A stretch of 63,640 bases of DNA, counting the filler, from Licmophora abbreviata (taxonomy: Eukaryota): assembly GCA_900291995.1 (NCBI GenBank). It is 31 parts of 31 records of this genome, joined end to end, with 100 filler letters (N's around TTAATTAATTAA, not from the genome) between each part and the next. Parts side by side here need not be neighbours in the genome. Positions count along the whole stretch, not along the records: positions 39,811 to 42,282 come from OLMU01005850.1; positions 42,383 to 44,034 come from OLMU01005851.1; positions 44,135 to 45,857 come from OLMU01005852.1; positions 45,958 to 48,323 come from OLMU01005853.1; positions 48,424 to 49,572 come from OLMU01005854.1; positions 49,673 to 51,251 come from OLMU01005855.1; positions 51,352 to 54,214 come from OLMU01005857.1; positions 54,315 to 56,376 come from OLMU01005858.1; 23 more parts are not named here. The stretch is one strand, 5' to 3'. The notes below the pieces were generated by a model. The model did no database searches. It was given only the letters and a program-made list of their open reading frames with translations, and was not told the origin of the DNA. The stretch's first letter is position 1; every line of letters begins with the position of its first letter. This document shows, piece by piece, positions 19,985 to 60,381 of this stretch. The translations under genes and the position numbers were made by a program.

Positions 19985-20113
19985 GCACATGTATCGGAGA
20001 TCAGTCAGTTATCAACTGACGTGTTAGAGTGTTTTAGAATAGAAACGTGTCAATAAACGAGGATTCTACAGTACTGCGTGGTTGAGGCATTTCAAATGTC
20101 CCACCTCCCACAT

Positions 20114-29455: not shown

Positions 29456-29509
29456 CTCTGTACGTACAAATAGTTTTAGTAGAAGCACGTTACGCATGTA
29501 AGAAACTAC

Positions 29510-39710: not shown

Positions 39711-40650
39711 NNNNNNNNNNNNNNNNNNNNNNNNNNNNNNNNNNNNNNNNNNNNTTAATTAATTAANNNNNNNNNNNNNNNNNNNNNNNNNNNNNNNNNN
39801 NNNNNNNNNNGCCAACAGCGCGAGCAAGAGGGTCCTCGTGCTCTTCATCATGGTGCGTGGAATCTGTGAGGGGGAAAGTGTGCATTTTGGCGAAAAGCTG
39901 CGCTCTGGAACTTGAAACTCCGCGCGCCCGCGTCTCGCTTATCGCCGAACGTCACACTTGCCGATGCCCGGCACCAAATGTATAAATCAAACAGACGTAC
40001 ATTAATTACGAAAATTCATAGAGTTTACATTCATCATAAATGTTAGCGAGTATCTATTTACACTTATTCAAACGAATACATGAGGCTGAATAGAGGACAG
40101 ATCTACGTCTTCATCAGCCTGTCGTATTGATCGATCATCATCACATCATTATACACTATCAACACGCCAGAAGCAGTCTTCCGAAGTCTAACGCAATGTG
40201 AGCGACGTCGTGCTCGTCCCATGCCAGGTTGCCAAGCGCGTAATATATACACACGCTTACCGGTACATTTCGTGTCATCACAGAGCAGAGATACTTAAAA
40301 CCAATGACGATTTGGTCGTCAAGTCGTCAAGCCGTCGCAACGGAACGCTTCATCGGCGCCAGCAAACTCCTCGCAAGAATCGGTGCTTAAGGGTTGTAGC
40401 TCACTCTCCAATACATCCAGGAGGCAGTACACCGGAAACTGGTCTTCGCACCTTGCTTCCTACAAACCACACGCTTGAGACGGAAGGCAGTGCCACGTTT
40501 GGTTTGAAAGTCTGTAAGGAAGCTGTTTCCTCTCATTCTAAATTGTCGCGCTATTTCAATATCATCTTTTGTGAAGGTAGAATATAGAACCAGTCCGTTC
40601 TTCGAAATGAGATGCGCCCCGTGCAGTACGAGGAGGACACGGCTATAGAT

Positions 40651-40869
40651 CTATTCTGGTTTGTGCTCCCGGTGGGAAAGTAAGCCTTGGTTTTCGTGGT
40701 GACGAACTCTCTTCAAGTGGCGATTCATGTGGAAGCGGCTCACGTGAGAATCGCCACGCGTCGACTCTTCGCCCTTCCGTTGCGCGACGACTTGCGTACG
40801 GACAAGCAAGGCCCTAGTCCTTGCCACTATGGTAAGCAGGGCTTCGTAGAAGAGCATAGTGTTCGCCAT
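40651..40869 (-). CDS. Small putative secreted peptide, possibly a divergent member of the QVRG/RxL family
   Basis: Weak hydrophobic leader, then AQRKG...SHVSRFHMNRHL; only a loose match to the family. Confidence 0.3.
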   Translation of the reverse strand: MANTMLFYEALLTIVARTRALLVRTQVVAQRKGEESTRGDSHVSRFHMNRHLKRVRHHENQGLLSHREHKPE

Positions 40870-41509
40870 CCTCGCGGAAATATGCTTGGCGATGAGCGAT
40901 GATGGCGACGCCAGGGACATTCCATGCCAATTTCTTGGAAAAACAATGATACTCGCAGATGCGGTGCAGAGGGGCAACGATAACTCTATGGTACCTAGTA
41001 TCACATACCACTTCGTATTGACCTCCACACGATTCGTGCTCTTGTTGACTACATGAAGCTCAGCAGGTGCGGGAGGACAGAATGGTGGAGTCGACCGCGA
41101 ACATACGGCTCCGTTGGCAAGAGGGTGAAGCAGAAGTTGTGAATGGAGTGCAAGAAGCTGCTCTGCGGCAAGGCCAGAGCATATTCAACGTGAGCGATTG
41201 CCACAGTACTACCACCGCAATGACGGAGCTCATTTTACGCGGTACCCGGTTATTTGATGGCGTGTTAGTGGCATTTGTATGGACGGGCGGGACTATTTTC
41301 GTTTGTACGTATTTTTCTTTATCTATACTTGCTAATTACTTCGTAATATCTATCGATTGGGTCCACAAGACCCGTTAATGATGAGCCACAGACGCCACAG
41401 TCCCATTGCAACAAGTAACAATTACTTCAGAACTTCCTACGGTCTTCGGAGATCGCCTTTTCCCCTTGTCATGCTGCGAGGATAGTGTGTCCTCAGTCCT
41501 CGCAGCTAT

Positions 41510-41824
41510 TTAGGCTTGGCCGGCGCGGTGACTAGTGCGGCGACGTTGCCTCTTGCCATTAACGTTCGCTCCCGGAGCGCTTGTCGTAAGTGATGTACCA
41601 CCAACTTTCGCTTCTCCATCCTCACCACCTTTGTTCCCCTTTTCGTCGAATCCGGTGAAGGCGTCTTCGATGGGTTGGTATTCCAACTCCCGACGAATGT
41701 GCCCTCGGCGCATACGTGTCGCATAAGTTGAGCTCCTATCGATTGGGCCTCGAACCTGACCATGGGACAAGGCGACTGCTACAAAAGCAAGCAACGAACA
41801 GAAGATGGCTTTCGTGGTTTTCAT
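41510..41824 (-). CDS. Small secreted protein, QVRG...TYATRM...RxL family
   Basis: MKTTKAIFCSLLAFVAVALSHG|QVRGPIDRSSTYATRMRRGHIRREL|... Confidence 0.75.
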   Translation of the reverse strand: MKTTKAIFCSLLAFVAVALSHGQVRGPIDRSSTYATRMRRGHIRRELEYQPIEDAFTGFDEKGNKGGEDGEAKVGGTSLTTSAPGANVNGKRQRRRTSHRAGQA

Positions 41825-42382
41825 GTTGGCGGCTATGTGAGTGCACAATCGGCGAAAAAGTGAGCGGAGCAATTCGGAGGTGGCAATTTTCAGTCTCAAA
41901 ATCGCCAACAGCGGAAACGGAAAAGGCGATGCCTGGGATTCAGAGCAGTCTTCATAGTCTTTGATCGCTGTAATCTAAAATCGGCGATAGAGTACTAAGA
42001 AAATAATTTACTTAACACAAGTATACTTGTATGATACAAAATTAGTATAATTGAACTTGATGTCTGAATTCACATAAAACATGTTTCAGGGGATTGAACG
42101 TGACTATGAGAAGGTCCATGCCCCACGCCGCCTGTCTCTTGCTTCTGGTCTATTGAACTGGACACAGACATGCTGTTGTTCACGTCAAAGTATGAGCCGT
42201 ATGAGCTGCCGAAAATTTTCCGAAAGTCAAAAAATACTAACGCAGCGTGAGGATCATCCTCGATACATCAGCCGTTGTCATGNNNNNNNNNNNNNNNNNN
42301 NNNNNNNNNNNNNNNNNNNNNNNNNNTTAATTAATTAANNNNNNNNNNNNNNNNNNNNNNNNNNNNNNNNNNNNNNNNNNNN

Positions 42383-42840
42383 CAAGACAATGAGAGATTT
42401 GTTCATTCGCAGTGTGGACATACCGGTACGGAGAACGAGTCAAGGCGTTACTTTGTAAATCATCACACTATTCACTTCTGATATTGTAAAAATAGACGAG
42501 GCTACATTTGGACACTAGACCTAGCTAGAGCACGGTAAGATAATGCCTGCACGGAATGAGTAGGGCTTACCGTGATGTGAGAGTGACGGAAGGGGGATAG
42601 TAGCGAGGCGTAACGAGCGCGGCATCAAGCTTAGGCATGCGAAATATACACTGTTATCGATCGAATGGATGAATGCAGTCTTGCGTGTGGAGCAAAAGTT
42701 TGTGGCGTTCGCTTTTCCACTATGAGGCAAGACAATGAGAGATTTGTTCATTCGCAGTGTGGACATACCGGTACGGAGAACGAGTCAAGGCGTTACTTTG
42801 TAAATCATCACACTATTCACTTCTGATATTGTAAAAATAG
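42383..42840. repeat. Direct repeat: 113 nt at 42383-42495 and 42728-42840 (period 345 nt; first copy truncated by contig start)
   Basis: CAAGACAATGAGAG...GTAAAAATAG occurs twice and reads identically. Confidence 0.92.
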
Positions 42841-43030
42841 GTACTATCGAGGGATCACCATCGTCAATCGACACACAACACAACACAACACAGAACCGAC
42901 AGGGATCTGCTGAAGTACCATACAATATTCAAGGCCTCTCTTGGATGTCATTATCCATTCTGGACGCCACAAAGACACACCACAACTTGATAGATGGTCT
43001 AAAGACCGATTTCTGTCATGGGTGCGCCTA

Positions 43031-43585
43031 TTACTTTGACTTTTTCGATGCCTTCGATGCCTTCGATGCCTTGGACTCCTTGGACGCCTTTGATGCTTTG
43101 GAAGCCTTGGAAGCCTTGGAAGCCTTGGATGACTTGGACTCCTTGGATGCCTTCGATGCTTTGGAAGCCTTCGATGCCTTGGACGCCTTGGATGCCTTTG
43201 ACTCTTTGGACGCCTTGGAAGCCTTGGAAGCCTTGGACGCCTTTGAAGCCTTTGATGCCTTCGAGGCCTTCGAAGACTTCGGTGCTTTCGTTGCTTTTGG
43301 TGCTTTCGTTGCCTTCGGTGCCTTCGTTGCTTTCGGCGCTTTCGATGCTTTCGGTGCCTTTGTGCCCTTCTTTCCTGACGGTGACAGGGTGTAAGTGGCA
43401 ACATAGGCTTCCATGTCTAACGCAGAGGTGTCATCAGAGGAGTCCAGCAGTTTACGATCTCGATCATGGCGCATGCGAGTGGCATATGTGGAGCCTCCGC
43501 CCTCACCTCCACGAACCTGAGCATGTGACCTAGTGGCGGCAACAATGCCAAGCAGGACGATAGAGAAAGCGGTAGAGACCTTCAT
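43031..43585 (-). CDS. Silaffin-like secreted Lys/Ser/Ala-rich protein
   Basis: Signal peptide, QVRG...TYATRM...RKL pro-peptide, short acidic segment, then over 100 aa of K-x-x repeats (KAP/KAT/KAS/KES/KSS) forming continuous KxxK motifs. Confidence 0.85.
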   Translation of the reverse strand: MKVSTAFSIVLLGIVAATRSHAQVRGGEGGGSTYATRMRHDRDRKLLDSSDDTSALDMEAYVATYTLSPSGKKGTKAPKASKAPKATKAPKATKAPKATKAPKSSKASKASKASKASKASKASKASKESKASKASKASKASKASKASKESKSSKASKASKASKASKASKESKASKASKASKKSK

Positions 43586-44134
43586 GTTGAGGTGCCGATC
43601 AAATCAAATTGTGAGAATTGTGTTGCCTTTCTCCAATATTGTGTCGTGTGGAAGAGGTGGGGTGAATTTTTAATTTTTGTCTGGCTGAAGCGTTGGGTCT
43701 TGATATATTTTTCGCGGGACAGCAATGAACGTGTCTGAAGGATGATATAGGCCGCGGAGTCAGATCGGTTAAACGGGAAAAGTATCTTTCCGGTACTCAG
43801 CAGCTAACCAAATAACGATTCAGCAGAAGTCAGTGCCGGAGGTCTGAGAATAAATCCCACCATTTTTTCGCTTCTACCCCAAAAAATCGACGATTCGTAC
43901 GCCCAACCGTTATCAGGTCAAAACACTGACGCGACTCGACTCACGCTGCAACGTAAGTTACAGGCCCACCAGTTAATAAAAATAATAACTCATTGATTAG
44001 TCAGCACGTAATACGCTTATCAGGTATGTGTACTNNNNNNNNNNNNNNNNNNNNNNNNNNNNNNNNNNNNNNNNNNNNTTAATTAATTAANNNNNNNNNN
44101 NNNNNNNNNNNNNNNNNNNNNNNNNNNNNNNNNN

Positions 44135-44695
44135 CAAACGAGAGAAACAATCACCGTCTTCCGGCGTACAGAATTTCGTTCGGTTGTAGACGAAAGTCCG
44201 GATGTACTTCTTGTCCTGTATGACTTTGTTAATGAAAGCCGAAAGCACCCTATCCTTGGGATCCCGCACAAAGATGGCCCTGGTGTATTCTGGAGAGTTC
44301 ATCATCTCTGTCGCTCTGCTAATATTGTATTCATTGAGATATCTGATGCCATTCGTCTTCGGGTTGTGTGGCATGCTCGAATGCCAATCCTCGTACCCCA
44401 TCATGCGTCGAAATAACTTCTTCCAATTTGTTGTGCCCACTTTCGGCACTTCCACAAAAATGAGCTTGTGGCTTTCCACGACCATTGGAGCGGTCCAAAC
44501 GTCTTGATAGACAAAGTCGGATGAATCGACAGAAGTAGTAGTAGTCTGGCGATGATGATCATTCCGATCGTTTACTGCACGTAGACTCAGTAGACTCGCA
44601 ATTGTGTTTGCCAACAGCGCTGCCAGGAGAAGAAACAACGTGATCAAGAACGACCAAGTGCCATGCACCTTCTTGGGTCGGAATGAACGAAGCAT
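44135..44695 (-). CDS. Golgi-type carbohydrate sulfotransferase (Sulfotransfer_2), 3' partial
   Basis: N-terminal TM; LIFVEVPKVGTTNWK (5'-PSB) and IFVRDPKDRVLSAF (3'-PB). Confidence 0.9.
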
Positions 44696-45258
44696 GTCTC
44701 AACTGACTCGACTCGGGGCGACGACGATGCGATCGTCGCAGAAATCAAAGTGAAAGAAGGAAGAGGGGACAGCACAAGTGTTGCCGAGTTCAGGTCAGTT
44801 GACGAAAATCCAACGCATACCAGATTCACAGAGCTCGCCAAAAACAAGAGCGAGGTCGGAAAGATGCCCTCGCATTTGGCGCGACCAACACTTACATATT
44901 TAAGTATTAATTCGCAGAAAGAGAAAAGAGCCTGTCGGACTTGATCGAATCATTGGACTCAGTTCTCGGGATATTTCGATATTTCATATTTCTCTTTTCG
45001 AAAAAATGGAGGGACTCGATTGATTCCATTCATTCATTCGCGCCTGCACCCGACGGTCATGGCTTGAAGCACAGGACGATCATAGATATCTGGTATCGGC
45101 ATCGCGAACGCAGCCAATTCCTACGTTATGGTATCATACCTACCGTACAGACTAGCCACGCGTGTGGTTCCTAAGCAGTTCTGCGTCAAATTTATTCACC
45201 AGTAGGAGTCAGTTGCGTCGCAACATTCTCATGTTGCTTATCTATAACTCTCTTCTGT

Positions 45259-45857
45259 CTATTGTTGTCGTATTAATTGTAGCTGATCTCTTGGAACGCC
45301 CTTTCGCTCCGACACTGGGCCTTTCTGAAACTCAACGTCGTAGACAACCATCTGGTAGGAGCTCGCGGTCACGACGCCCGGCCGATAGTCAACGTCCCAG
45401 AGTGCCAGAACTCGCTGCCCTGGCATAAGTTGGGAGAGCGTTTCCTCTACTACCAATATTTCATTTCGGGCGACTTCGAGTAACACATTGCCGTCATCGT
45501 CGTCTTCACATTGAATATCGAACGCACTTTCTGTTTGATGCGGGTGTTGGACGATGCCTTTCACAGTAGCTTGACAAAAGTCGTCTTGACTTTCTCGGTA
45601 CACGACAACAGCCTGGCCGATGGATAGTTCTGAGAACGTGTGTTTGTCTGAAATCTCATGACGCCGCAATGGCCATTCGGCGCCGCTCTCTTCCTCGTCA
45701 TCATCGGAAGTATCAAACACAACATAGAACCGATCCACTTGGTACATACGCGTGACGGTTGCCGGATGGGACACTATGGCACCATCCATAGCGTATGCGT
45801 AGACTCGTTCTCCAACCGAAAGATTGGCGTCGTTTGCTGTCGGCGCTGTTCGTATTC
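45259..45857 (-). CDS. Three tandem Tudor/Agenet-like repeats; probably the C-terminus of the adjacent aminopropyltransferase fusion
   Basis: Frame open to the linker; LSVGERVYA..HPATVT..FYVVFD / LSIGQAVVV..QATVKG..FDIQCED / LMPGQRVLALW..YRPGVVT..YDVEF..KGVPRDQL. Confidence 0.7.
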
Positions 45858-45957
45858 NNNNNNNNNNNNNNNNNNNNNNNNNNNNNNNNNNNNNNNNNNN
45901 NTTAATTAATTAANNNNNNNNNNNNNNNNNNNNNNNNNNNNNNNNNNNNNNNNNNNN

Positions 45958-48323
45958 TCTCATCCACTTGTACTCGTAGGGAAAGGTCACGTTGAAAGTT
46001 CACCACGCGCCCAATTCCTCGAGGCTGTTCATCGACGAGCGCCACTGTCAGGGTGTCTTGGGGGAACTGCGATGTAAGGATATCCAGAAAAAAGCCGGGT
46101 AGCTCAAAGCTCTCATTGTCATTGGCAAACCAATTCACGTCGATGTGATTCCTACCATCCCACAAGACGAGGAAGCTCCCTCCGGACCATGGGGTTACAA
46201 TCACGCACCCGTCACTGCCCGCGTCGGTGCTTATCTTTGGTGATGCGTCAGCAAGTTCTTCTGAATCCATGAGAGAGAGGGCGACCTCCACGAAGCTCAT
46301 CATGGAATCCAGTGAAAGATGCACCGATGCGGCTACCTCGAGCTGCATCAACACATGATAGGCCAGTGGCTGTTGAGAAAACCATTGACTCAGGGCAGGT
46401 TGCTGATCGTAGTGCTCGGGACCGAAAAAGTACTCCCATTCCCAGTCGGGGTCCTCCACGAACTGCCCGCCTTTGATCATTCGAACTTCAGAATCGATTT
46501 TCGTCGTTTCGTCTTGTTCTATGCGTGCCACTAGCTCAAGCAGTCGACCGACGAAGTTGTCATCTACAGATGTAGACACACCAAGCTCCATGCGGCCTCC
46601 TTCTGTAGTGTTGAAGAGGACCTCTGTTCGGAAATTCGGGTCGTTCACAATGATGGTGCTTCTGAATCTCTCCATCAAGTTCCGACGCCATGATTCGTCT
46701 TCTTCTTCTTCTTCGTCGTCGTCGTCCTCATGTATTAACGAGAGGACAAGCAAATCATCCTCCAACAGACCGACCTGATCCGATAGAATTATCTCATACG
46801 CGATTCGACCGATGGCGTAGGATGCACTCGAGTCAATGACCAGCGCACGGATCTTTTGCTTGTTTGATGCGTGAAAGGCATCCAGACTGTCACCAAGCTC
46901 TAGCTCGCAAGCCGCCATGCGCTCTGTGAAGCCTTGAGAATACTCGTTTGAGTCCGTCGAGAGCCCCGAACACGTCCAAAGGGGCAACACTTTCGCATCT
47001 CCCTTGGCCTTCTTCAACGCGTTTACTCCCTGGCAGGGCTTCCCCTTCTCGCCACAAAGCACGACTGCCACGTACGGATCGGTACCCCCAATCAACTTGT
47101 TGGCGCACTCTTTGAGGATCAAAGTTTCGACGGTCTGCTTCTTCGTGTTAGTAGTAGATGCTCGAGATCCCTCTGTGGGCTCCTCTGCAGTGCAAGGATC
47201 CGTCGCACGGGGGCCTCGCTTCATTTCATCTTCCTTCCATGTCTCTGTCCCGTACATGCCCCCCGCTACGATGCGGTAGGATGACGTGAACCTCCCGATG
47301 GCCCGACCACCGATGGCTTCCACAATAGCGTTCCGCGCCGCATCGTGCTTCTCAAAGGCACTCCAAAGATGAATATCGATTGCGGCGTACCTGTGCTCAG
47401 GCCACGTTCGAACATTGACGTATCCTTCCTGTAGAATCACTGTCACCGTAGGTTTCTCGTGGACCGTTGTCTCCATTCGACTCAATGTGTGGAAGCCTTC
47501 CTCCGCCAAAGTTGTCTCGACGGTCAATAGAAGCGCAGCGGAGTCCTTCAGATTGCCCTTGATGTCCTCTGCCTCGACAATCATCAGGACACCAGGGCTG
47601 CTCGTCTGGTTCTTTGCAGACTCTTCCTCCTGTGCGAACGCGTCATCGGCTCTACAGTGCCGTTGTGCAGTCGTATTGTGGCGATAGTCGTGAACGTACT
47701 CGTATGGATCTTCAATTGACGATAACGGCTGGATGTAGAGAGTGTCAAGCTCATGATCCCTCATCTGATCGTTGAGAAAGTCAATACGGTTGCTTCCGAG
47801 ATTCATGCATTGGGAACACACGACAGGAACGCTGGGATAGTTGATTTGAAGACTGCGGTATAGAAAACAAGAGGACAAGACTTCTGTGTCAGACTGTGTT
47901 ATCAATCAGACACGAGCTGCAACGGAACACTTTCGCACGTACCTGTACTGAAAAAGTTCGCTGAACTTGTCCATGTAGAGTTCGTTCTTAACAAAGATGC
48001 CGTCAGGCTTGAGCAAAAGCGACAGAGCCTGCAGAATGTCCAATTCGCTCGTCACGCTGAGCGACATTACCGTCTCCGACAGATCCACGAGAACCATATC
48101 AAATGATCCAAAGTAGTCAGCGGGGAGCATCAAGAGACTCTTGGCCGCATCGCCGTACCACCACTCAACTTTCTCGTTGTCAAAGTGCGGCTGCGTACCC
48201 ATGTGTAGGAAGCTGTACCGCGTAATGGTTTGGTCAAGCTCAAGACCAACAGCGAGCTCGATGGAAGGGTACTTGAGTATCTCATGGAGAAGCATGGAGT
48301 CTCCTCCACCGACCCACAGCACG
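45958..48323 (-). CDS. Aminopropyltransferase (spermidine/spermine synthase-like) + two degenerate AdoMetDC-like folds (module A); intron 47853-47942; partial at both ends
   Basis: VLWVGGGDSMLLHE, LELD, YGDA, FDMVLVD; ILQEGYVNVRTWPEHRYAAIDIHLW resembles SpeD ESHxSIHTWPE..YAAVD; ends DEQPRGIGRVVNF. Confidence 0.88.
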
Positions 48324-48423
48324 NNNNNNNNNNNNNNNNNNNNNNNNNNNNNNNNNNNNNNNNNNNNTTAATTAATTAANNNNNNNNNNNNNNNNNNNNN
48401 NNNNNNNNNNNNNNNNNNNNNNN

Positions 48424-48560
48424 CTGCCCATAGCGTGCTCGTCGTCGGTGGCTGAGACGAACATCGAAATTAGGCTCATCACCAAAACAGCTCTCATCAG
48501 GCACCATCTTCTAGCATAAGTAGTCGAGGGAAATTGGTCAAATTTGCGTCGCTTCATCAT
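48424..48560 (-). CDS. N-terminal signal/anchor fragment, likely start of the module A gene
   Basis: MMKRRKF...WCLMRAVLVMSLISMFVSA-TDDE runs into the linker on the same strand as module A. Confidence 0.55.
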
Positions 48561-48947
48561 TGCAATCTACTTCTCTACCATATACTTTCAAAAACACCGC
48601 AAAAGATTACATTCAGGGGACACTTCATGTCGACGCCGACATTCAATCTCGCCGAGCGTTGGTGATCAAAATCTTTCGCCTGGCATGCAGATCCCCGAAC
48701 ACCAACATGACTACTTGTACTCCGTGCATGACGTTGTATATCAATATTTCGATATGTGTCCTTCGCAACGGATAGTTTGGCATCGCTGGTGAAATTAACA
48801 AATATATAGTCACTAGTACAATTGAAATGATATACGCGTCGGGCGATACTCTGGCGATGCCATTCTGAGAAAGAGACGTTGCATCCTCACACTGACATCT
48901 CGCCATTGCATTCGTCGCAAAATAAGTTCTACTTGCCCATGCACCTC

Positions 48948-49154
48948 ATGTCCATCACAAAGACCTTTTTTGTCTTTCTCTTGATTGCCGTCCTCGTTAG
49001 CCTGTCGGATGCACAGGTGCGTGGCAGTAGTAGTGGTGGAGAAACCTATGCCACACGCATGCAAAAAAGGGGAAGCAGCTCTTCGACGCGCCGACAGCTC
49101 AAGTCTACGAAAGCTCCAAAGGCTAGTAGGCGGCGTGCGCGAAAGGAATATTGA
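48948..49154 (+). CDS. Small secreted protein, QVRG...TYATRM...RxL family, with short KxxK mature peptide
   Basis: MSITKTFFVFLLIAVLVSLSDA|QVRGSSSGGETYATRMQKRGSSSSTRRQL|KSTKAPKASRRRARKEY. Confidence 0.8.
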   Translation: MSITKTFFVFLLIAVLVSLSDAQVRGSSSGGETYATRMQKRGSSSSTRRQLKSTKAPKASRRRARKEY

Positions 49155-49992: not shown

Positions 49993-51251
49993 ATGATGGT
50001 GATCGCCTTGGCAGCAGCGACGGCTTGTCAATTACTCGTTGGCACCGGCTTCATAATAGCCTCGCTTTCCGCCGTCGAAATGGAACTTTTCCCCCCCTAC
50101 CAACCTGAGCATGTGGTGCAAGGTCCCCGAATACTGACACAGTCCGATGATGAAGAAGAAGATGGCACTGATGTTGATGCTGTTGATACCTTTAGCTTTT
50201 CGGCTTGTCTGTTGATCAAAGATGACAACCGAATTCTCCCAGAATGGCTTGCATATCATTACACCACTCTTCCGCTCCGGCATCTTGTCGTGGCGGTCGA
50301 TCCCTTTAGTCTCACCGACCCAAGTAAGATCATTCTGGACGAGTGGAGAAACAACGATGACCTGGGTATGAGAATAGACGTGTGGCACGATGAAGACTAC
50401 ATGATCTATGATTCCTCGACCATTCCAAAACCCTTTCCAAAAGATTCAGGAAGTTACAAGATTGCAGCTCATCGAGAACGACAGCCGAGCTTTTACAAGG
50501 CTTGTCTTGATCATCTTCGAAGAGAGAATAGGACTTGGACGGTTCTGATAGATTCAGATGAGTATCTTTTGCTGAACACCTTCAATTTGCCGGGGCTTCG
50601 TGAAGAGCGGTGCGAAAGGAAAGCGGAGGGACAGGCGAAAAAGGCGTGTTTCGATCGGCTGGCGATGCTGTCTGCCTCCTCGAGCAATGCTACTATGATG
50701 ACGGTCGCAGAGTTTATAGAGCGGGACATTCGAAACAACGAAACTCTTTTCAAGAATACCAGCGCTCTTCCCTGCATTTTGGTCCCACGGGTGTTCTTTG
50801 GCGGGCAGGAGACTTCTCGAGAAGAGATTTCCTCGTACGGTACGTTGCGGTTGTATGTGACCTAGGCATGCGTGGTGCAGAGACAAAGCGCACTACTGTT
50901 GTTTGTATCACTGGTCTCTCCCATACTAACGACTCTACCACTTTCTTTGATTCCAACTCTATCAATAAAGTCCCGGCTGGTTTCAATCTTTCCTTGTTTG
51001 ATACGTTGCGCTTTGGCAAGTATCTCAGATACTCTCTGGGAAGTGAGTGGCCCGGCAAGAGCGTCGTCGATGCATCGCGATTCCACGAGAAATCCATTGA
51101 CAACGCGCACCAAGCCATGAGAGATGATCTGTGTGTGGGCGACGTCTTTCCCGACCCTTTCACTTCCGTCTTTCGGGTACAGCACTACTTGGGCAGTCTC
51201 GAAGACTTTCTAACACGACCGGGTGATTCCAGGCGGACGAGCGAGGTACGT
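49993..51251 (+). CDS. GT-A fold glycosyltransferase (GT92/GT2-like diatom family); intron 50840-50970; 3' partial
   Basis: FSACLLIKDDNRILPEWLAYHY, RQ..FYKACL, WTVLIDSDEY (DxD), CILVPRVFFG, FDTLRF, GKSVVD, RVQHYLGS. Confidence 0.8.
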
Positions 51252-51351
51252 NNNNNNNNNNNNNNNNNNNNNNNNNNNNNNNNNNNNNNNNNNNNTTAAT
51301 TAATTAANNNNNNNNNNNNNNNNNNNNNNNNNNNNNNNNNNNNNNNNNNNN

Positions 51352-54214
51352 TCTGTCAGACGTCACGGCTGGTGTAGAGAACATTACAGCATCTTTGTCA
51401 GATGTACTAATGGTTAAGGGAGGGCAGATGCCTGAAGAGCGTGACTGGGCGTGGGAGTATTTCTTTGGTCCAAAGGACTATGATCACAAGCATGCTGCAG
51501 ATCAGTGGCTTTCTCAAGAGCCGTTGGCATACCAGGTTGTGATGCAACTGAAACAGGCCGACGGAGGTAATCTTTCCTTATCGTTGGGTGCGATCAAGAA
51601 AGCGGTCGAGATGGCACTACGTCAGATGAAATCGGATGATATTGCAACGGCAGAGCTGAAAATAAATAGCGACGTGGGAAGTGGATGTACGATTGTCGCA
51701 GTTTGGTCCGGAGGGAGCTTTGTTGTGCTGTGGGACGGCAGGGGTCGGGTAGATATCAACTGGTTTAGCTATGAGGAGCACTTTGACTTACCCGGTTACT
51801 TTCTGGACTTCTTTATGTCTCAGTTTCCTGAGGACGCGATGAAGATTGTCTTCATGGACGAACAGCCCAGGGGAACTGGGCGTGTTGTCAATTTTTTGCG
51901 TGACCTTGAGCCGCTTGTCAATCCGCGCTGGATGGAAGTTGAAGAATATGATGTACTGGCAACGAACAAGACTTCCAGCAATAGAGTCATACAGAATCAG
52001 AATCATCTGGGGAAGCGAGTTGCTCTTCTTCACATCGGTCCCTTTCCGGTATGTCCTATCTCTGTTCTCTCAATGAATGCACCGCTCCGTATCATTTGTC
52101 CAGGCCTCACAACTTAATCTTGTCTGTTTGCGGTAGGCGGGCTCGACCTCGATCCAGGCTGACCTCTGTCGACACGTACGCGACCTGGAGAACTTCAACT
52201 GGACAGTTCCAAACTGCGACTCGTTGTCCCCGTGCGTTCCTGCGTACGATTTTGTCAGTGAGATCGACACCTTTTCTATTGGGTGCTTTGCCGATGCGCT
52301 TGAGAGAGTCCCCGAGGAGAATAGCGTCCTTCTCTCTTCGGAGCTGTTCGTACAATTGATGGAGAAACCTGGTCGGCTCGAATTTCTACGGGGCCTTCTT
52401 AGCGGCTTTCAAGTCAAGATTGTCTACATACATCGGAATAAGGCATCACAGGTTCTCCCGCATTGCGTCCAGGAATCTCAAGGCTCAATCGGGCAAAAAT
52501 TTGAAAGATGTCTCGAAACACTTCGATCGAGCCGCAATCCGGACTTTCACCCGGAAATGCTACAGGCTTATGCAGACGTTTTTGGGGATGAGAATGTGTA
52601 TCTCATGTCACTTGAAAGGCTTCGAGAGTCTGGTATCACGCCATTTCGGGCGTTGATTGAAATCGAATCTTCCCTTCAAGCATTTGTCACGAAGGAGAAG
52701 AGAAATGTCAACCCAAACGTTGATGACGCAGCAGACCAAATGAAAAACTCGTTCGAGAGTTTTTTAGCCTTGAAGTTGCAAGACGAAGGATCTGCGCCGT
52801 TGAGTGACTTCGATTCAGTCTGCATGAATGATCGTCTGGTGGCGTTTGCTGAGTCTGCGTCTCTTCCTAACATTTGTGTGGAAACGGGTGAGAGGTTCAC
52901 CTCCTGGATCCAATCGGACTACGAATGGTGTAAAGACACGAAATACAACTTTCACTACTTCACGTGTGAAGACACGCTCCGAGAAGAAAATCGATCGTGT
53001 GTTGTCAATGTCGGAGCAATGATGGGAGAGGAAGATACCCGTGTTCGTGTTCTGGCGGAGGTTGACAGCATTGTTGAAAACTGTAAGAGGAGCGAAACAA
53101 ACTCTCTAAGCCGAGAGAAGAAAGTCGGGTCCACCCCTGAAGAATTGATTGCTCAGGACTCATATTTTCTTTCCCGGGCTCATGTCATCTATCGATATCC
53201 AAAAGCCCGTTTCGAGAGGCAGAATGCGATTTCCATCGTGGGCGTCTTGAATTACGATGCTAATCGACGACAAATGATCCGAGAAACTTGGGGCCACAAT
53301 CGAACAAATGTGTTCTTCATTGTGGCCGGAAACTGGACCGAAAAGCTGGAGACAGAGTTTTTGTCAACTCAAGATTTGGTCTGGATCGATCGTCCTGAGA
53401 CCTATCGTGGCTTGACGTACAAGACACAAGGTTTTATGACGGCTGTAGTTAAGCACGTCAGTCCGAGCAGTTACAAATATTTGTTCAAGACCGACGACGA
53501 CTCTTATGTGAACTTGGACAAACTGGAGAATCTTCTTGAAGATAGCAGATATCGAGATGCAAACTATATTGGTGGCCTATGCCACTCGAAGTCTAGAGTC
53601 AAGCGGGATCCCACACACAAGAACTACGAGTCAAGAAAGGTGCAACCCGATGACTTCTACAAACCTTATGCAGATGGTGTTGGCTATGCCGTCTCTAACT
53701 GGGCCGCTTCCTGCATGGTGGGTAACATACCTGGAATCAGGTACTTCGCGAATGAGGATGTCGCCACTGGGGACCTAGCTTCAAGTTGCAGAGTTTCGTG
53801 TGTCGCAAGCCTAGACATCCTCGGTGTCGACACGGGATCAAGTGTATCCATTGAAAGGCAGTCCGACAACGTCATCCTTCGGCCCCACTTGCAGTATGAG
53901 AAAGACATGCGAGAGCAACATGCCCGAACCTGTTCGAATATGACATCTTCTGTATCGTGCATCCGCGCCCTTCCCATCCAAGTGGTACCTCATTGTGATC
54001 GCGGCAAAAGAGGCTCAACATGGTGCTACGATGATCTCAGTGACGGCAAGGACCAGCGCTACTACGACCCATACGATTCGTCTGAGTGCGAGACGGAAGA
54101 TTCATTGTCATTCGATGATATGGAGGAGATCGAACCACTGGCATCTCACCACCACGATATAACTTTCTCGAAGGACCCTACGAACGACAATGTATGCTAT
54201 GCGCTGGACGATGA
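51352..54214 (+). CDS. Giant fusion, part 1: AdoMetDC-like tail (module B) - P-loop sulfotransferase-like domain - GT31 galactosyltransferase - start of aminopropyltransferase; intron 52049-52136
   Basis: DEQPRGTGRVVNF, then LHIGPFP|AGSTSIQ, then RRQMIRETWG, LTYKT, YLFKTDDDSYVN, YADGVGY, NEDVATG, then SHHHDITFSKDPTNDNVCYALDD, all in one spliced frame. Confidence 0.85.
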
Positions 54215-54314
54215 NNNNNNNNNNNNNNNNNNNNNNNNNNNNNNNNNNNNNNNNNNNNTTAATTAATTAANNNNNNNNNNNNNNNNNNNNNNNNNNNNNN
54301 NNNNNNNNNNNNNN

Positions 54315-56376
54315 TGTTGAAATGTGTGACAGCTTTCGACCTCAGTACAGCGAAATGATGGTACATTATCCTGCTCGCTACCTTGAGAACGTCAAGCGGG
54401 TCTTGTGGGTCGGCAAAGGTGACTCCATCCTGTTGCAGGAGATTCTCAAGTACCCGTCTATTGAACTGGTCGTGGGGCTAGGCATCGACCAAACACTCAC
54501 TCGGTACACGTTCAAGCACATGGGCGCCCAGCCGCATTTCGACAACGAGAAGGTTGAGTGGTGGTACGGCTATGCATTCGCTACTGTGGCTATGCTTCCT
54601 GCGAACTACTCAGGCACGTTCGATATGGTCCTGGTGGAGGCACCCGAGGCAATCATGTCGCAGCCTGTCGTGAAAGGTGTCGAGATGCTGCAGGCGCTGT
54701 CGGCGCTTCTCAAGCCGAAGGGTATCCTGGTGACGAACGAGCTCGTCATGCACAGGTTCAGTCAAGTATTCCAGTACAGGTATGTTCGATGTGAAGTTTT
54801 GCGTGATGGATGGACTGGTATTTATCTGAGTGTATTTTTAGTGTGTACTGTTTCGAGTGACTTTATACTGACAAGGTTTGTGCCCCCTCTCGCTCGAACG
54901 CAGTCTCCAGGTCAACTACCACAAAGTTCCGATGGTATGTTCACAGCACCTGGTTCTCGGGAGCAACGGAGTAGACTTCCTCAACGATGAGATGCGGGAT
55001 CACAAACTTGACACCCTCTACCTCAAGCCTTTGTCATCTATCGATGACCCCTACGAGCTCGTCCATGACTATCGGCACAATGCGACCGCTCAATGGCCCT
55101 GTCAAGGTCAAGAGCAGGCGCTGGTGGAGCCTACCAAGCAGTCCGTCAGTCGTGGTGTCTTGATGATTGTCGAGGTGGAAGATGCGAGCGGCGATCTGGA
55201 CGACCCCAAGTCAGTTATCACTGCGGTCGAGGCGAGCCTGAAGAGCGAAGGGTTCAGCGTCGTGAGTGGAGTAGAGTCGACGGCCGATAACAGGCCCGCA
55301 GTGACCATCATTCTGCGTGAAGGATACGTCGCAGTGCGGACGTGGCCAGAACACAAGTACGCAGCGATCGACATTCATCTCTGGAGTGCGTTTGACCAGC
55401 ACGGGGCAGCGCGGAAAGCTGTTGTGAAAGCCGTCGGTGGTCGGGTCGACAAATCGACATCGTCGTACCGCATCGTAGCTGGCGGAATGTACGGGACGAC
55501 GACGTGGAAGGACGACGAAAAGAAGCGGGGTCCACAGGCCACCGACGCTTGCGTCGAGACGTCCGCGGTGGTGCCTCTTGCCAAGTCTATGGGGAAAGGT
55601 ACTAGGGAGATAATTGTCCAAGAGGGTGTGGTGCGGCTGGTCGATGAGATCGACTTTGTCGTGGCGGTACTCTGCGGAGCGAAAGGGTCACCCTGTAAAG
55701 ATGTAGACACGCTGAAGAAAGCCAAGGGCGTGGGCCGAGTTGTACCTCTTTGGACTTGTCCTGACCTGGTGGGCAGGAATGGTACTGGCGATACAGTTTC
55801 CACCGAGCGTATGGTGGCATGCGAGCGAGATCTGGCGTCGAGCTTGACCGACTCGATCTGGGTCGGCGATAAGATTCGTGCGCTGGTCGTCGACTCGAGC
55901 GCATCGTACGAGATCGGCCGAGTCGCGTATGAGATGTTAAAAACGAACAAGAATCGCCTGCTGAAGGACAATCTGCTTGTCATGTCTTTGATGCGTGACG
56001 AGGAGGGGGAGTCATGGCGTCGGAACTTGGTGGAGAAATTCCGAACGGAAGTCATTGTGGACGACCCGAACTTCAGGACCGAGGTGGTCTTCAGTAGTAC
56101 AGAGGGCAGCCTGGAGCTGGGCGTGTGCACGTCTGTCGGTGACCATTTCGTTCGTCAACTAACAGAAGTCTCATCGATTGTCCAAGAAAAGACCTCGCTG
56201 GCTTCGGAAGTACGGATGGTTAAGGGCGGGCAGCTGTCCGAAGAGCCTGACTGGATGTGGGAATATTTCTTTGGTCCAAAGGACTATGATCACAAGCATG
56301 CTACAGATCAGTGGCTTTCTCAGGAGCCGTTGGCATACCAGGTTGTAACTCAGCTTAAGTTGGTGAAACGAGCGTC
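54315..56376 (+). CDS. Giant fusion, part 2: degenerate aminopropyltransferase + AdoMetDC-like domain (module C); intron 54780-54903
   Basis: MCDSFRPQYSEMMVHYPARYL..KRVLWVGKGDS; ILREGYVAVRTWPEHKYAAIDIHLW; colinear with module A including intron position. Confidence 0.88.
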
Positions 56377-56476
56377 NNNNNNNNNNNNNNNNNNNNNNNN
56401 NNNNNNNNNNNNNNNNNNNNTTAATTAATTAANNNNNNNNNNNNNNNNNNNNNNNNNNNNNNNNNNNNNNNNNNNN

Positions 56477-58162
56477 CTTTGTATCTCAATTTCCCGAGGA
56501 GGAGTTGAACGTTGTCTTGGTGGACGAACAGCCAAGGGGAACTGGCCGTGTTATCAATTTCTCGCGTGACCTTGACCCAAGCGACACTCCTCATTGGACA
56601 AGCCATGATTATCAAACTCCTGCTGGTACAACGTCCATTTTTGAGTCTGCGAAGAGCCTCACATCATCAGAGGTGACGCGTCAGTTGGAGTACGTTCACA
56701 TTACGAAAGTGGGTGGAACCGCGCTCGAGGATGCTGCACTAGCCCAGGACGGCGTCGTTTGGGGCCGCCAGCATTATCCAGAAAGCGGCTGGGCGCTGCC
56801 ACCCTTGTCGATTCCGCCATCTATTCATGTCGGATACTTGGGTGAACCATGGCACACGCCTCAACATTGGATCACGCCTCACCCGTTGGAGGGCGCAGAC
56901 ACGTTCGCTGTTGTCCGTAACCCGTACGCTCGGTATGTCTCTGAGTATTTCTGCGAGTGGTACCCCTGGAACAGTCCTGAAAATGTGAGAATCGACAAAG
57001 CGGACATTATGAATACGTGGATACAAAAGTTCATCCGTCGCAACCGGGACGTAGAACAGCATGGTCATATGCTTCCTCAGCACTACTATATCTACGATGA
57101 GAAGACGGGGGAGCAGCAAGTGGATCATGTCCTAAAATACGAGGATGATTTGCCCGATAACTTCTCCGTGTTTGTGGCCAAGTATGGCCTCAACATCACT
57201 TTGGAACCCAAGAAGCCCTCCAAGCGAAAGACAGGTATAAAGGATCTATCGGAGGCAACAATTCGACTCATCAATGACTACGCAGCGAAAGACTTTGAAT
57301 TGCTGCAGTATCCCATGGTAAAGTCATCCGTCGAATTCACCGACGCCGATGGCTCCGTCGCTGCGAGTTCGGAGAAAGTTTCAACTGACAAAGAAGAAAA
57401 CCCAACTACGCCACAAGATTTGCTCTTGACTGTCCCTTTCTACATTTACGACGACTTTGGTTTACCCGACGACGTCACCCTCGACGGCAAGCGGTTCGTC
57501 ATGGAGGACATTGATCCAGAGAAGCCGCTTCATTCCGTGTCCCCGCTGCTGAGCAAACACGCGGACGATGTCTTGTTCGCCAGAGCTGCAATGAAACATC
57601 CCATGAGGACGCTCGATCCCAGCAAGGCCGAGCTGTTCTTAATCCCTACGCCCTTTAATATGATCATGGATCGGATGAAATTCGGGGGCAAACTGTGCGT
57701 CAAGAAGATTTGCAATATGGACCTGGTTCGACACGTGGACCAGGTCCTGTCGTCCACAAGTTGGTTTCAAAGGCACGGTGGAAAAGACCATGTTGCGGTG
57801 TTGAGTCACTGGGGTTGGCACGATGACTGGTTTTGGAACAAGTTCATTGGTGATTGGTGGCCTAAACACATTCACCGGTGTAATGCCATTGGCTTTGAGG
57901 ACAAGTTCCGCCATCGCGCCAAGGACCGCATTGTGTTTCCATCCTACTACGTCGGCAGACCATGTCCACCACCGACTAGTAGTGGAGACAATAAGAAGAG
58001 ACCTCACGATTTTGCCATGATCACGACACTGGAACGGAGAGACCAAGATGTAAAATTCCAAGACCGCATGAATATTTGCAAGTGGATCCAGAAGGAGACG
58101 ACACATTCTATGCCTTCGTGTGGGGAAGGAAGTCAGTGCCCGGCGCTCTCCCAAGCCAAGTA
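56477..58162 (+). CDS. Giant fusion, part 3: module C tail - Sulfotransfer_2 domain - exostosin/GT47-like domain; 3' partial
   Basis: DEQPRGTGRVINF; LEYVHITKVGGTALE and FAVVRNPYARYVSEY; PFYIYDD, HPMRTLDPSKAELFLIP, WFQRHGGKDHV in one ORF. Confidence 0.85.
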
Positions 58163-58262
58163 NNNNNNNNNNNNNNNNNNNNNNNNNNNNNNNNNNNNNN
58201 NNNNNNTTAATTAATTAANNNNNNNNNNNNNNNNNNNNNNNNNNNNNNNNNNNNNNNNNNNN

Positions 58263-58833
58263 AAATCGGAACGCTACTGCAAGACGAGCGGAGTCGCATC
58301 GAAAATCGAGTTCACGAAGCCAGCAGTCCTTCTTGTCGAATATTGGGCGGTCTCTCTCGGATGCGCTAGTCGTACCGGACGACGTGGAAATCAGTACGGA
58401 TGGTTCGGATCGGCAATCGTATACGGATGAAGATCGATCCCATTCTCCCGATCCTGATGATTCGAGGACTCGCGATCGTCGGGACGAAGACTCTCGACCG
58501 TCTTCTCCCGGCGGTAGCGAAGCGAACGTTAGCACTACGGAGGTAAGTGCCGTGAAAAATCTTGCTTTTGTCTAGTATCTTCGCTGGGTCTTGTCTAACG
58601 CTGGTTTTGCTCTCTTTCCGTCACTTGCTTCTGTCTCAGTCCATGTCACTGCAGGAGCGGCAGCATGTGCAGCGTGCGCAACAGTTGCGCTTTTTGAAGG
58701 AGCAGGGATTGATCCGGGACGAAAAGGCCATGAATGGTGGCCCGGGCCCTGCATCTCCCAAGAGGAGAACAACCTCCGACTCGGGGTCCATCATTTCGTT
58801 GACTGGAACTTCTACAACGGATGCGAACCGATA
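58263..58833 (+). CDS. Hypothetical Ser/Asp/Arg-rich C-terminal fragment; intron 58543-58639
   Basis: GTAAGT...CTCAG intron joins two ORFs (…VSTTE|SMSLQERQ…LRFLKEQGLI). Confidence 0.55.
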
Positions 58834-59081
58834 GCTACGCGTAGTAATGGTAGTCACAAATAGTTAAAAAGATGGTGCGGCTCCCATCACATGGCGTGTA
58901 TATTCCAAGCCCTTGAGAAACAAAAATTGCTCCCAACAGAGACGACATCAATTTTCTTTTTAATTTCTAGTTATGCTCTCGTCCCTACTCATAGATTCGA
59001 CCACCTGCTGCACCGTTGCCCGCTACCGTACCAGGTACAAACTTCAAACTGTAGTCGTCGTACCTGTTAGTCTGTCGATGA

Positions 59082-59337
59082 CCGAATGTACAATCATGAC
59101 GTATTAGCACCATCGATGACCGATGACCAATATCAGTGCGTCGCACCATCGACAAGCACACCGAATGTACAATTATGCGTAGTCTTTTAGCACCATCGAT
59201 GACCGATGACCAATACCAGTGCGTCGCACCATCGACAAGCACACCGAATGTACAATTATGACGTAGTCTTTTAGCACCATCGATGACCGATGACCAATAT
59301 ACGAGTATACCAGTGCGTCGCACCATCGACAAGCACA
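59082..59337. repeat. Minisatellite, three imperfect units of about 80-95 nt
   Basis: CCGAATGTACAAT...TAGCACCATCGATGACCGATGACCAATA...CAGTGCGTCGCACCATCGACAAGCACA starts at 59082, 59161 and 59244. Confidence 0.92.
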
Positions 59338-59562
59338 ATGACCACCTGGTAGTTGGCATGAAGACTCAATGACACCATCTACTTTCTCTGTACTTAAACG
59401 ACCGACCCATGAGATCCCCTAATCTTCAGGGCCGACACCTTCCCTCTACATGGTATGATTGTCGCGAAAACGATTCTCTAAAATATTTGCTACAGTAGCA
59501 ACAAGACGCTGCGCTACCAAGGCATCGGCACTATCGAACACATGCCCTGCTTACCCGTATGC

Positions 59563-60381
59563 TCAGCTGAGAAGTTTCTTCCGTGCCACCTCTGCTTGCT
59601 TGGTAGTGTGCCGGTTAATGGTCAATTCTCCGTTCGTGTGCATTCGCTCTAATACCAGATGCTCACGAAAGATTGAGTGGCCGGGGCTTTTGGGGTTGAA
59701 CTGAAAGTTTGCATCACCAATGCCCTTGACCCTTGAACAATCCTTTGGCTTTGGCATATTGAAGTGATATGGATAGCACGGGTCTTCCTCCCTTCCGAAG
59801 AGAGTCACAGACTTGCAATTCTCAACAGCCCACATTACAGCCATCATTCCAGAACTGCAATACTGACCCTTACGTAGAGACACGAACTTTGTACAAGCCA
59901 ACCATTTCGACAACGGTAAAAGCGTCCATTTGGAAGATGTCTTGGCGCTCCATTTCTTGTATTGCGCTGACGATTCTTTGGCCGTAGTCTGGTATGTGAT
60001 ACCGGTCAGTTTAGGATTGTTTTGCTTAGCGAACCAGACGCCTGGTGAGGAGTAGTTGCTCTGCTGAAATGCTCCAAAGTGGACAAGCCAATGTGTGGTT
60101 TTGCTCCCCACGTACTCTTCAAAGCCATCCGGAACGGCGCCATTGATTCTGAGAACTTTATCAAACGAGTCGATGAGTGGGCCATCGTGGAACTTGAGTA
60201 AGCTCCCGGAGCTGAAAACGACAGCGCAGGACCCTGGAGGCTTCTTCGCGGGGAGGGTTTTCTTGCTATCGGCGGTGATTGGTACCTTCTTGGAAACGGT
60301 TTTAGGGTCCTTGAAAGGGTTCCATTTCTTGGGATGTTTGTCCTTGCTCTTTCTGAGCGGGTTTCGTATCGGAAGAGTCAA
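59563..60381 (-). CDS. GT29 sialyltransferase-like protein (5' partial)
   Basis: Sialylmotif [11 protein letters not shown]...[13 protein letters not shown]...VGSKTT, motif [22 protein letters not shown], motif III-like YHF, VS-like HSIFREH. Confidence 0.88.

Follow-up and report, generated by a model that had tools for sequence, protein, structure and literature searches.

A predicted fusion of an aminopropyltransferase-family module with sulfotransferase and glycosyltransferase domains in a candidate silaffin-like locus of Licmophora abbreviata

In a 63,640-base stretch of DNA from Licmophora abbreviata, referred to below in its full length as the window, an uninterrupted reading frame of ~2,200 codons (gene B) joins a module of the aminopropyltransferase/dead S-adenosylmethionine decarboxylase (AdoMetDC) family with sulfotransferase and glycosyltransferase (GT) domains. 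The frame lies in a region (39811–60381) that also holds a second gene of this family (gene A) and three genes for small, putatively secreted pre-pro-proteins, one of them silaffin-like in composition. Judged from its sequence, the fused frame would link sulfation and glycosylation in the secretory pathway with a family for which polyamine transfer has been proposed; its function and its role in silica formation are putative.

Gene B runs on the (+) strand from 51353 to 58160 across the contigs S26, S27, and S28 (924, 645, and 561 codons, respectively, after splicing), contains no stop, and is open at both ends. Its parts are, in order, the C-end of another family unit, a sulfotransferase-like region, GT31, the aminopropyltransferase domain, and the dead AdoMetDC domain, followed by the family C-terminal domain, a sulfotransferase, and GT47:

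51353..52048 (+), S26: unit 1, the C-terminal domain of a third family member; 5′ end open at the contig edge
52049..52136 (+), S26: predicted 88-nucleotide (nt) GT-AG intron (GTATGT...GGTAG), joining unit 1 in frame to a 692-codon frame
52137..52970 (+), S26: sulfotransferase-like region, suggested weakly by a language-model lead (0.94 to bacterial sulfotransferase clusters)
52971..53975 (+), S26: GT31 galactosyltransferase-type catalytic domain, without a membrane anchor
54027..54212 (+), S26: N-terminal part of the aminopropyltransferase domain (YDDLS...NDNVCY), resuming on S27
54316..56374 (+), S27: middle part of gene B, 645 codons spliced, ending in the start of the family C-terminal domain
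54343-54777 (+), S27: aminopropyltransferase domain, with four canonical positions changed
54780-54903 (+), S27: intron
55166-55435 (+), S27: dead AdoMetDC domain
56478..58160 (+), S28: distal part of gene B, 561 codons, no stop
56478 to about 56650 (+), S28: end of the family C-terminal domain
56679-57323 (+), S28: complete Sulfotransfer_2 catalytic domain
57381-58160 (+), S28: GT47 domain, cut by the contig end

The frame continues across both of the linkers that divide it. At S26|S27, the final 60 codons before the linker and the 154 codons after it match consecutive residues of the relative P0001 (349–443, then 449–602), the join being marked by the motif YDDLS...NDNVCY (E = 7e-11, against a small set) and lacking a few residues at most. 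At S27|S28, the sequences on either side of the linker are colinear with the paralogous copies at S26 51353–52036 and S23 46510–45983, with ~240 nt missing. Furthermore, pieces of 151–177 nt from independent metagenome runs span two junctions within the frame, namely 52007–52157, which includes the predicted intron, and 53745–53984.

The transferase domains of the fusion correspond to the catalytic portions of anchored relatives. The S28 sulfotransferase matches residues 56–317 of the 320-aa stand-alone protein P0059, the S28 GT47 domain matches residues 40–290 of the 415-aa stand-alone protein P0052, and the S26 GT31 domain matches residues 74–348 of the 445-aa anchored protein P0017. The hydrophobic anchors with which P0059 and P0052 start are absent from the fusion, whose transferase domains lack both anchor and stem, and the interdomain linkers are ~17–19 residues long (~17 between GT31 and the aminopropyltransferase domain; 19 between the sulfotransferase and GT47). 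Relatives end at points equivalent to 45974 on S23, 51946 on S26, and about 56600–56650 on S28; among related loci from other organisms, 55 contain the family C-end, of which 54 have a stop 0–158 codons further on (median 13) and one runs off its contig, and in none of the 55 is the C-end extended by sulfotransferase or glycosyltransferase domains. The sole relative with a long extension (158 codons; L043, 4320–7811) carries no Pfam domain in it. On S26 and S28, the family C-end continues in each case into a further open frame, encoding the sulfotransferase-like region on the former and the Pfam-confirmed sulfotransferase on the latter. Because the anchors and stems are cleanly lost, the interdomain linkers are short, and the frame stays open past the C-end on two separate contigs, these features argue for a functional fusion rather than read-through of neighboring genes or a chimera. 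In addition, the ratio of nonsynonymous to synonymous substitution rates (dN/dS) is 0.27 over the 67 codons common to two copies of the C-terminal domain. Thus, several of the tailoring enzymes that the original prediction had placed side by side are catalytic domains of one reading frame, a tie stronger than adjacency.

The family to which the modules belong was delineated by a search with the S23 frame, which returned 16 long relatives (1,186–1,394 aa; best 42% identity), the labelled ones coming from Thalassionema nitzschioides (42%) and Cylindrotheca fusiformis (30%). PF01564 is present in all 16, a SET domain in nine, and PF02675 in six, with sulfotransferase or glycosyltransferase Pfam domains in none. 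The layout is exemplified by P0001, with SET at residues 58–244, aminopropyltransferase at 458–590, and AdoMet_dc at 693–790. A Met followed by a hydrophobic, signal-like stretch opens 13 of the 16 sequences, as judged by eye. The PF01564 domains of the window copies are 53–75% identical to those of 14 relatives, and the family C-terminal domain (ending ...QPRGxGRVVNF) occurs on S23, S26, and S28, with relatives aligning there to their last residues; a language-model atlas queried with this domain was uninformative (best score 0.86). The intron occupies the same position on S23 and S27, and the spliced junction restores the family consensus. None of the three window copies has its N-terminus on the contigs, and no part of the window matches residues 1–348 of P0001, that is, the portion with the N-terminal SET domain.

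The AdoMetDC motif reads EGY in both window copies and in nine of 13 aligned relatives, the other four having EGF, QGF, QGY, and HGY. Glycine occupies the processing position in all 15 aligned sequences, where it aligns with Ser63 of Thermotoga AdoMetDC (ES(63)H), the residue replaced in the non-processing S63A mutant of that enzyme (PDB 1tmi). With the processing serine absent, the AdoMetDC domains are predicted to be dead, and the window modules are therefore unlikely to be polyamine-synthesizing AdoMetDC fusions. These observations support assignment of the modules to the secreted diatom SET–aminopropyltransferase–dead-AdoMetDC family (Michael, 2011, FEBS Lett 585:2627), members of which were found, among the sequences searched here, only in diatom-labelled or unlabelled marine eukaryote sequences. 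The original prediction had related the modules to AdoMetDC–aminopropyltransferase fusions proposed as long-chain polyamine machines; membership of that family stands, whereas polyamine synthesis by the AdoMetDC part does not, and gene B has additionally lost its canonical aminopropyltransferase residues. Three later papers paraphrase the description of diatom multi-domain polyamine machines (PMC3820600, PMC12029483, PMC6356823). The family has been proposed for polyamine transfer to silaffins.

Gene A, the second family gene, and the Tudor-like repeats on the contig beside it are laid out as follows:

45959..48322 (-), S23: gene A, partial, 758 codons spliced, both ends open
47981-48319 (-), S23: aminopropyltransferase domain, canonical motifs kept
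47853-47942 (-), S23: GT-AG intron
47306-47581 (-), S23: dead AdoMetDC domain, followed by a Rossmann-like region and the family C-terminal domain
45259..45855 (-), S22: three Tudor-like repeats, closed by a stop at 45259 and open on the 5′ side at the contig edge

In an alignment to Plasmodium spermidine synthase, the canonical aminopropyltransferase positions are GGGD, E(I/L)D, GD(A/G), and D-x-S-(D/E), residues that bind decarboxylated S-adenosylmethionine and the amine. All four are kept in gene A (GGGD, ELD, GDA, and VDLSE), as they are in 14 of 14 aligned relatives. A structure model of gene A, built from 15 sequences, had a predicted local distance difference test score (pLDDT) of 72, and its best match was human spermine synthase (PDB 3c6k; Foldseek E = 1e-7), which also combines a non-catalytic AdoMetDC-like domain with a Rossmann-type aminopropyltransferase-like domain. 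Within the model, the AdoMetDC-like portion superposes on the Thermotoga and Aquifex AdoMetDC structures with template-modelling (TM) scores of 0.77–0.81, whereas global superposition on human spermine synthase is poor (TM 0.17–0.29). The family differs from the human enzyme in having two more domains, an aminopropyltransferase domain upstream and a C-terminal domain, in being secreted, and, in the case of gene B, in being fused to Golgi-type transferases.

The gene A frame reaches the left end of S23 still open, and the Tudor-like frame on S22 is open on the same strand; the repeats quite probably form the C-terminus of gene A, as read from the two frames. The Tudor-bearing relatives L049 and L051 carry the Tudor domain as an insertion within the C-terminal domain and not behind it, so these relatives provide no confirmation of the S23|S22 join. 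Tudor domains are readers of methylated lysine. Michael's diatom fusions of 2011 reportedly include a class that combines a dead AdoMetDC with a Tudor domain.

The candidate substrates are three small proteins, which share a signal-peptide-like start, the sequence QVRG-x6-(S/E)TYATRM, basic residues, and an RxL site:

41510..41824 (-), S20: paralogue 1, 104 aa; signal-peptide-like start, pro-region QVRG...STYATRM, then RREL
43031..43585 (-), S21: paralogue 2, 184 aa; same pro-region, RKLL, (KAxK/KASK)n domain
48939..49154 (+), S24: paralogue 3, 71 aa; same pro-region, RRQL, then only KSTKAPKASRRRARKEY

In all three, a Met and a hydrophobic core are followed by small residues at −3/−1 before QVRG, as judged by eye, and cleavage is predicted at the RxL sites (RKLL, RREL, and RRQL), which lie 8–15 residues past the conserved motif. 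The QVRG...TYATRM motif is absent from all six frames of the window outside S20, S21, and S24, and no description of this pro-region as a silaffin feature was found in the literature searched. After RKLL, the S21 protein contains 29% Lys, 25.5% Ser, 24% Ala, and 37 KxxK motifs; its best 100-residue window holds 29 Ser and 35 Lys, and the protein passes a published silaffin-like composition screen. The S20 and S24 proteins fail this screen. The S21 gene contains a 9-nt/27-nt tandem repeat at 43044–43360. Pfam matches to Collagen and to Plasmodium_HRP (histidine-rich protein) at S21 42804–43603 were rejected, since they read the KASK-coding 9-nt repeat in a wrong frame or antisense and represent no genes. 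Downstream of the silaffin-like gene, S21 also carries an exact 113-nt direct repeat (42383–42495 and 42728–42840).

Three further genes of the region encode separate enzymes of the Golgi type:

44135..44695 (-), S22: type-II-anchored Sulfotransfer_2 gene starting at 44695, with Met, a hydrophobic anchor, and KVGTTNWKK resembling the loop that binds 3′-phosphoadenosine-5′-phosphosulfate; 3′ part off the contig
49993..51251 (+), S25: type-II-anchored GT2-like (Glyco_tranf_2_4) gene, with a frame change near 50860 that is probably an intron; 3′ end off the contig
59563..60381 (-), S29: GT29 (sialyltransferase-family) gene, C-terminal part and stop; 5′ end off the contig

An 83-nt tandem repeat (2.7 copies, 92% matches) lies at 59081–59300 of S29, just downstream of the GT29 stop.

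Domain calls for the ten contigs were made with Pfam on 74 open reading frames (ORFs):

Sulfotransfer_2: S22 (E = 9.5e-17) and S28 (E = 4.5e-5; 24.1 bits vs a cut-off of 22)
DUF4537/Tudor-like: S22 (E = 4.6e-6; 27.1 vs a cut-off of 27)
Spermine_synth (PF01564): S23 (E = 9.8e-13) and S27 (E = 4.8e-14)
AdoMet_dc (PF02675): S23 and S27
Glyco_tranf_2_4: S25 (28.0 vs a cut-off of 27.5)
Galactosyl_T (GT31): S26 (E = 1.9e-26)
Third aminopropyltransferase-family fragment, C-terminal part only: start of S26
Exostosin GT47: S28 (26.5, under the curated cut-off of 33.4), assigned by homology only, with 49% identity to P0052, which carries PF03016
GT29: S29 (E = 3.6e-22)

The other 21 contigs encode unrelated functions, namely TLDc, HSP90, an NmrA-like reductase, an aldo/keto reductase, ATG4 (peptidase C54), a PI3-kinase, a protein kinase, ABC transporters, PAP-fibrillin, an F-box/cytochrome b5 protein, a CLC channel, a diacylglycerol kinase, a biotin/lipoyl protein, an MFS transporter, RFC, an EF-hand protein, and PFK. 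Thus, the gene-content change at S20–S29, where the original prediction had seen a switch to secretory-pathway genes, is real; that these contigs form one contiguous locus is shown in part only. The predicted list of domains (sulfotransferase, Tudor-like, aminopropyltransferase/AdoMetDC, GT2-like, GT31, GT47, and GT29) was recovered by Pfam and homology, with adjustments in number. Two of the three sulfotransferase or sulfotransferase-like domains (S22 and S28) have Pfam support, and the call on S26 52137–52970 was not substantiated; two of the three aminopropyltransferase/AdoMetDC modules carry both domains (S23 and S27), the third (S26) being a C-terminal part; and "three or four" small secreted RxL paralogues became three, one of which, on S21, is KxxK- and Ser-rich as predicted.

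The window consists of 31 contigs (1058–8099 nt) and 30 identical 100-nt linkers (N44-TTAATTAATTAA-N44), and 39811–60381 corresponds exactly to S20–S29, that is, to ten contigs with nine internal linkers (42283–42382 through 58163–58262). Short, conserved GT-AG introns mark S20–S29 as eukaryotic nuclear DNA of the diatom type, and an Rfam scan of the whole window gave zero matches. Four linkers, two of them within S20–S29, split single genes whose halves resume in order and orientation, so the file order is positional, at least locally. At S10|S11 (15615–25189), a Vps34-type PI3-kinase is cut, with the PI3Ka domain ending S10 and the PI3/PI4-kinase catalytic domain opening S11 on the same strand; at S13|S14 (27110–29972), an ABCB-type transporter is cut between ABC_membrane and ABC_tran, with an exact 33-nt end-to-start overlap. 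Of the nine linkers inside S20–S29, two are continuous (S26|S27 and S27|S28, within one gene), one is plausible (S23|S22), and six show no evidence of continuity; contiguity is thus shown for the enzyme parts on S26–S28, and the co-location of substrates with modifying enzymes, as originally predicted, is probable but unproven.

On related loci, the neighborhood is different. A comparison was made of 49 ORFs on 15 related loci with flanks, and of 60 related loci in the case of silaffin-like ORFs. The neighbors on the 15 loci are a proteasome ATPase, TBC/TLDc, EamA, FHA, PX/Vps5, RING, THO1, EXS/SPX, Misato, and a DAO oxidoreductase, and the S20–S29 arrangement is not conserved among the related loci examined. 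A metagenome contig, L052, has a SET-domain ORF (3865–4731, (-)) lying tail-to-tail just past the family gene; this ORF may belong to another member of the family, in which case local duplication would occur in other organisms too. In L040 (3677–5308) and L041 (3724–4749), a TBC/TLDc gene follows the family gene on the opposite strand; window contig S1 also carries a TLDc gene (364–1428, (-)), a likeness that may be due to chance.

Compared with known systems, the window modules resemble the Michael 2011 machines in combining an aminopropyltransferase with a bacterial-type AdoMetDC in one secreted protein, in lacking the AdoMetDC processing serine, and in the Tudor domains of some members. These relatives, of about 1200–1500 aa, have an N-terminal SET domain in nine of 16 cases, whereas the S20–S29 contigs have none; gene B instead carries the sulfotransferase-like region and GT31 in the place of SET, and a sulfotransferase and GT47 past the relatives' stop, and its aminopropyltransferase motifs are degenerate. 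Gene A differs from L049 and L051 in having the Tudor-like repeats after the C-terminal domain. Biochemically, silaffins are defined by extraction from biosilica, by lysines bearing polyamine and methyl groups, and by phosphoserines. The small proteins share with them a putative signal peptide, the pro-region, and the RxL site, and, in the case of S21, a repetitive, KxxK-rich, and Ser-rich domain; moreover, they lack sequence relatives elsewhere, as is usual for silaffins. By contrast, the S20 and S24 proteins do not pass the composition screen. Several lumenal catalytic domains on one polypeptide with a single anchor are found in bifunctional Golgi enzymes, such as heparan N-deacetylase/N-sulfotransferase and the two-domain exostosins, and in proteins of other assemblies in which GT31 is fused to LicD (P0019), GT47 (P0020), or Sulfotransfer_2 (P0022); in these organisms, Golgi-type enzymes with several domains seem to be a recurrent feature. 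Unlike gene B, none of these joins glycan or sulfate transferases to a polyamine-transferase-like module. In Phaeodactylum tricornutum, about a quarter of the regulated silicon-responsive genes occur in small clusters, according to the available part of Sapriel et al. (2009; PMC2758714), with paralogous putative matrix-protein genes side by side, as may be the case here; those clusters differ in consisting of co-regulated paralogues, that part of the paper reporting neither pairs of a substrate beside a modifying enzyme nor enzyme fusions. In the limited library searched, no report was found of a fusion of a polyamine module with sulfotransferase or glycosyltransferase domains, or of a silaffin substrate-plus-enzyme locus.

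The preferred reading, in which the silaffin-like genes, the aminopropyltransferase-family genes, and the fused multi-enzyme frame belong together, with the frame acting on the neighboring pre-pro-peptides, is given about an even chance, and several observations weigh against it. Those concerning the locus would be explained by an artefact of contig order, in which only S26–S27–S28, and perhaps S22–S23, are adjacent, the small secreted, GT2-like, GT29, and anchored sulfotransferase genes lying elsewhere; we consider this somewhat unlikely, though far from negligible. The window is an artificial concatenation, and no gene continuity was shown across the seven S20–S29 linkers other than S26|S27 and S27|S28. 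At four of them, the expected continuation is missing from the neighboring contig, namely the rest of the sulfotransferase at S21|S22, ~476 N-terminal residues of gene A at S23|S24, ~1,000 residues of unit 1 at S25|S26, and ~125 residues of GT47 at S28|S29; either the gaps there are large or the contigs would not be neighbors. Sulfotransferase or glycosyltransferase domains occur in none of the 49 ORFs on the 15 related loci, and Lys/Ser-rich (silaffin-like) or propeptide-motif ORFs in none of the 60 related loci, most of these loci in both cases being short transcript-like contigs; the synteny in other organisms by which the original prediction was to be checked thus did not appear. On the other hand, four linkers demonstrably join halves of single genes, and the three orphan-family and three enzyme-family members all fall inside ten successive contigs, with none on the other 21. 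Exact words common to two contigs never exceed 18 nt except in the pairs S26/S27 (39 nt) and S13/S14 (33 nt), and, because the contigs otherwise share no long exact words, grouping in the assembly graph cannot account for the grouping of the paralogues, which argues for a real locus. Overall, a cluster can be regarded as proven for the three contigs S26–S27–S28 and plausible for one more; for the remaining contigs it is probable, though unproven.

A real locus could serve general cell-surface or mucilage glycoconjugates, with the gene B module a dead scaffold and the Lys/Ser-rich proteins ordinary extracellular matrix. This alternative, to which we would likewise assign a minor but appreciable probability, draws on the fact that GT31, GT47, GT29, and Sulfotransfer_2 are typical of glycan synthesis, that the GT31 fusions P0022, P0020, and P0019 exist without a polyamine module, and that gene B reads GKGD, GID, GYA, and VEAPE at the four canonical aminopropyltransferase positions, its role in silica being putative. 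Also weighing against the preferred reading, the link of the small proteins to silica is one of composition, and a profile of their conserved pro-region gave, against 1.84 billion representative proteins, three matches, all spurious (repeats or hydrophobic stretches). The glycoconjugate alternative is countered by the fusion partner, which comes from a family proposed for polyamine transfer to silaffins and confined here to diatom-labelled or unlabelled marine eukaryotes, by the S21 protein, which passes the silaffin-like screen and has an RxL site, and by silaffins themselves being sulfated and glycosylated, as stated in the available parts of two sources (PMC3820600; bioRxiv 10.1101/2021.09.18.460806). 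Quite improbable, in our estimation, is a long fused frame that is non-functional, whether as a chimera of metagenome assembly or as a recent, decaying product of local duplications. In a sequencing-run search, seven DNA rows match parts of the window (best, 0.22 of sampled words), with no RNA run listed; marine metagenome runs from three studies yield short pieces at 95–100% identity and low depth, and S26 is matched in public reads by 12 short pieces (151–267 nt), none of them spanning the contig. The source thus looks like a fragmentary, low-coverage, metagenome-type assembly, in which chimeras occur. S26 and S27 share, besides the 39-nt exact word, 90% identity over 143 nt, a type of repeat prone to assembler error; the gene B motifs are degenerate, and no relative has the fusion. 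If the predicted intron at 52049–52136 were retained, unit 1 would stop at 52115, and the downstream start would be an anchorless internal Met. The N-terminus of the fused frame is missing, its signal peptide being predicted from relatives only. The sulfotransferase-like region (52137–52970) has no Pfam match and remains a weak call: a PDB sequence search with 52137–53261 gave no match, as did one with the S28 frame, BLASTP detected no significant similarity between this region and the S28 sulfotransferase, and a single-sequence structure model of 52137–53000 was unusable (mean pLDDT 35). Against a non-functional frame stand, however, the ~2,200 stop-free codons, the clean loss of anchors and stems from three transferase domains with short linkers left between them, the open frame beyond the family C-end on both S26 and S28, the position of the domain junctions outside the repeated stretch, with independent runs matching across two of them, and the dN/dS of 0.27.

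For the preferred reading of a substrate-plus-enzyme locus, a mechanism can be proposed in which the fused product would be a lumenal multi-enzyme of the endoplasmic reticulum, Golgi, or silica deposition vesicle. The aminopropyltransferase-like module of gene B, with its degenerate residues, may mainly bind lysine-rich or polyamine-bearing secreted proteins, which the domains fused to it would sulfate and glycosylate; gene A, in which the catalytic motifs are retained and Tudor-like repeats probably form the C-terminus, may perform or guide aminopropyl transfer onto lysines. The likeliest substrates would be the neighboring pre-pro-peptides. That one giant lumenal enzyme, encoded beside its substrates, couples the sulfation and glycosylation of lysine-rich pro-peptides to their recognition or aminopropylation is a speculative and rather unlikely proposition; if true, it would represent a eukaryotic assembly line for biosilica peptides resembling those of ribosomally synthesized and post-translationally modified peptides, and would for the first time connect, at the genetic level, the family proposed for polyamine transfer with the sulfate and glycan groups that silaffins carry.

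To our knowledge, the enzymes that add polyamines, methyl groups, sulfate, and sugars to silaffins have not been identified, kinases excepted, and the aminopropyltransferase/dead-AdoMetDC fusions have since 2011 been no more than a bioinformatic proposal. Fusion of this family to anchorless Golgi-type transferase domains constitutes Rosetta-stone evidence, suggesting that the family acts inside the secretory pathway and on the same targets as sulfation and glycosylation. If the neighboring pre-pro-peptides are the substrates, the region would be a rare example, in a protist, of a locus that combines substrates with their tailoring enzymes.

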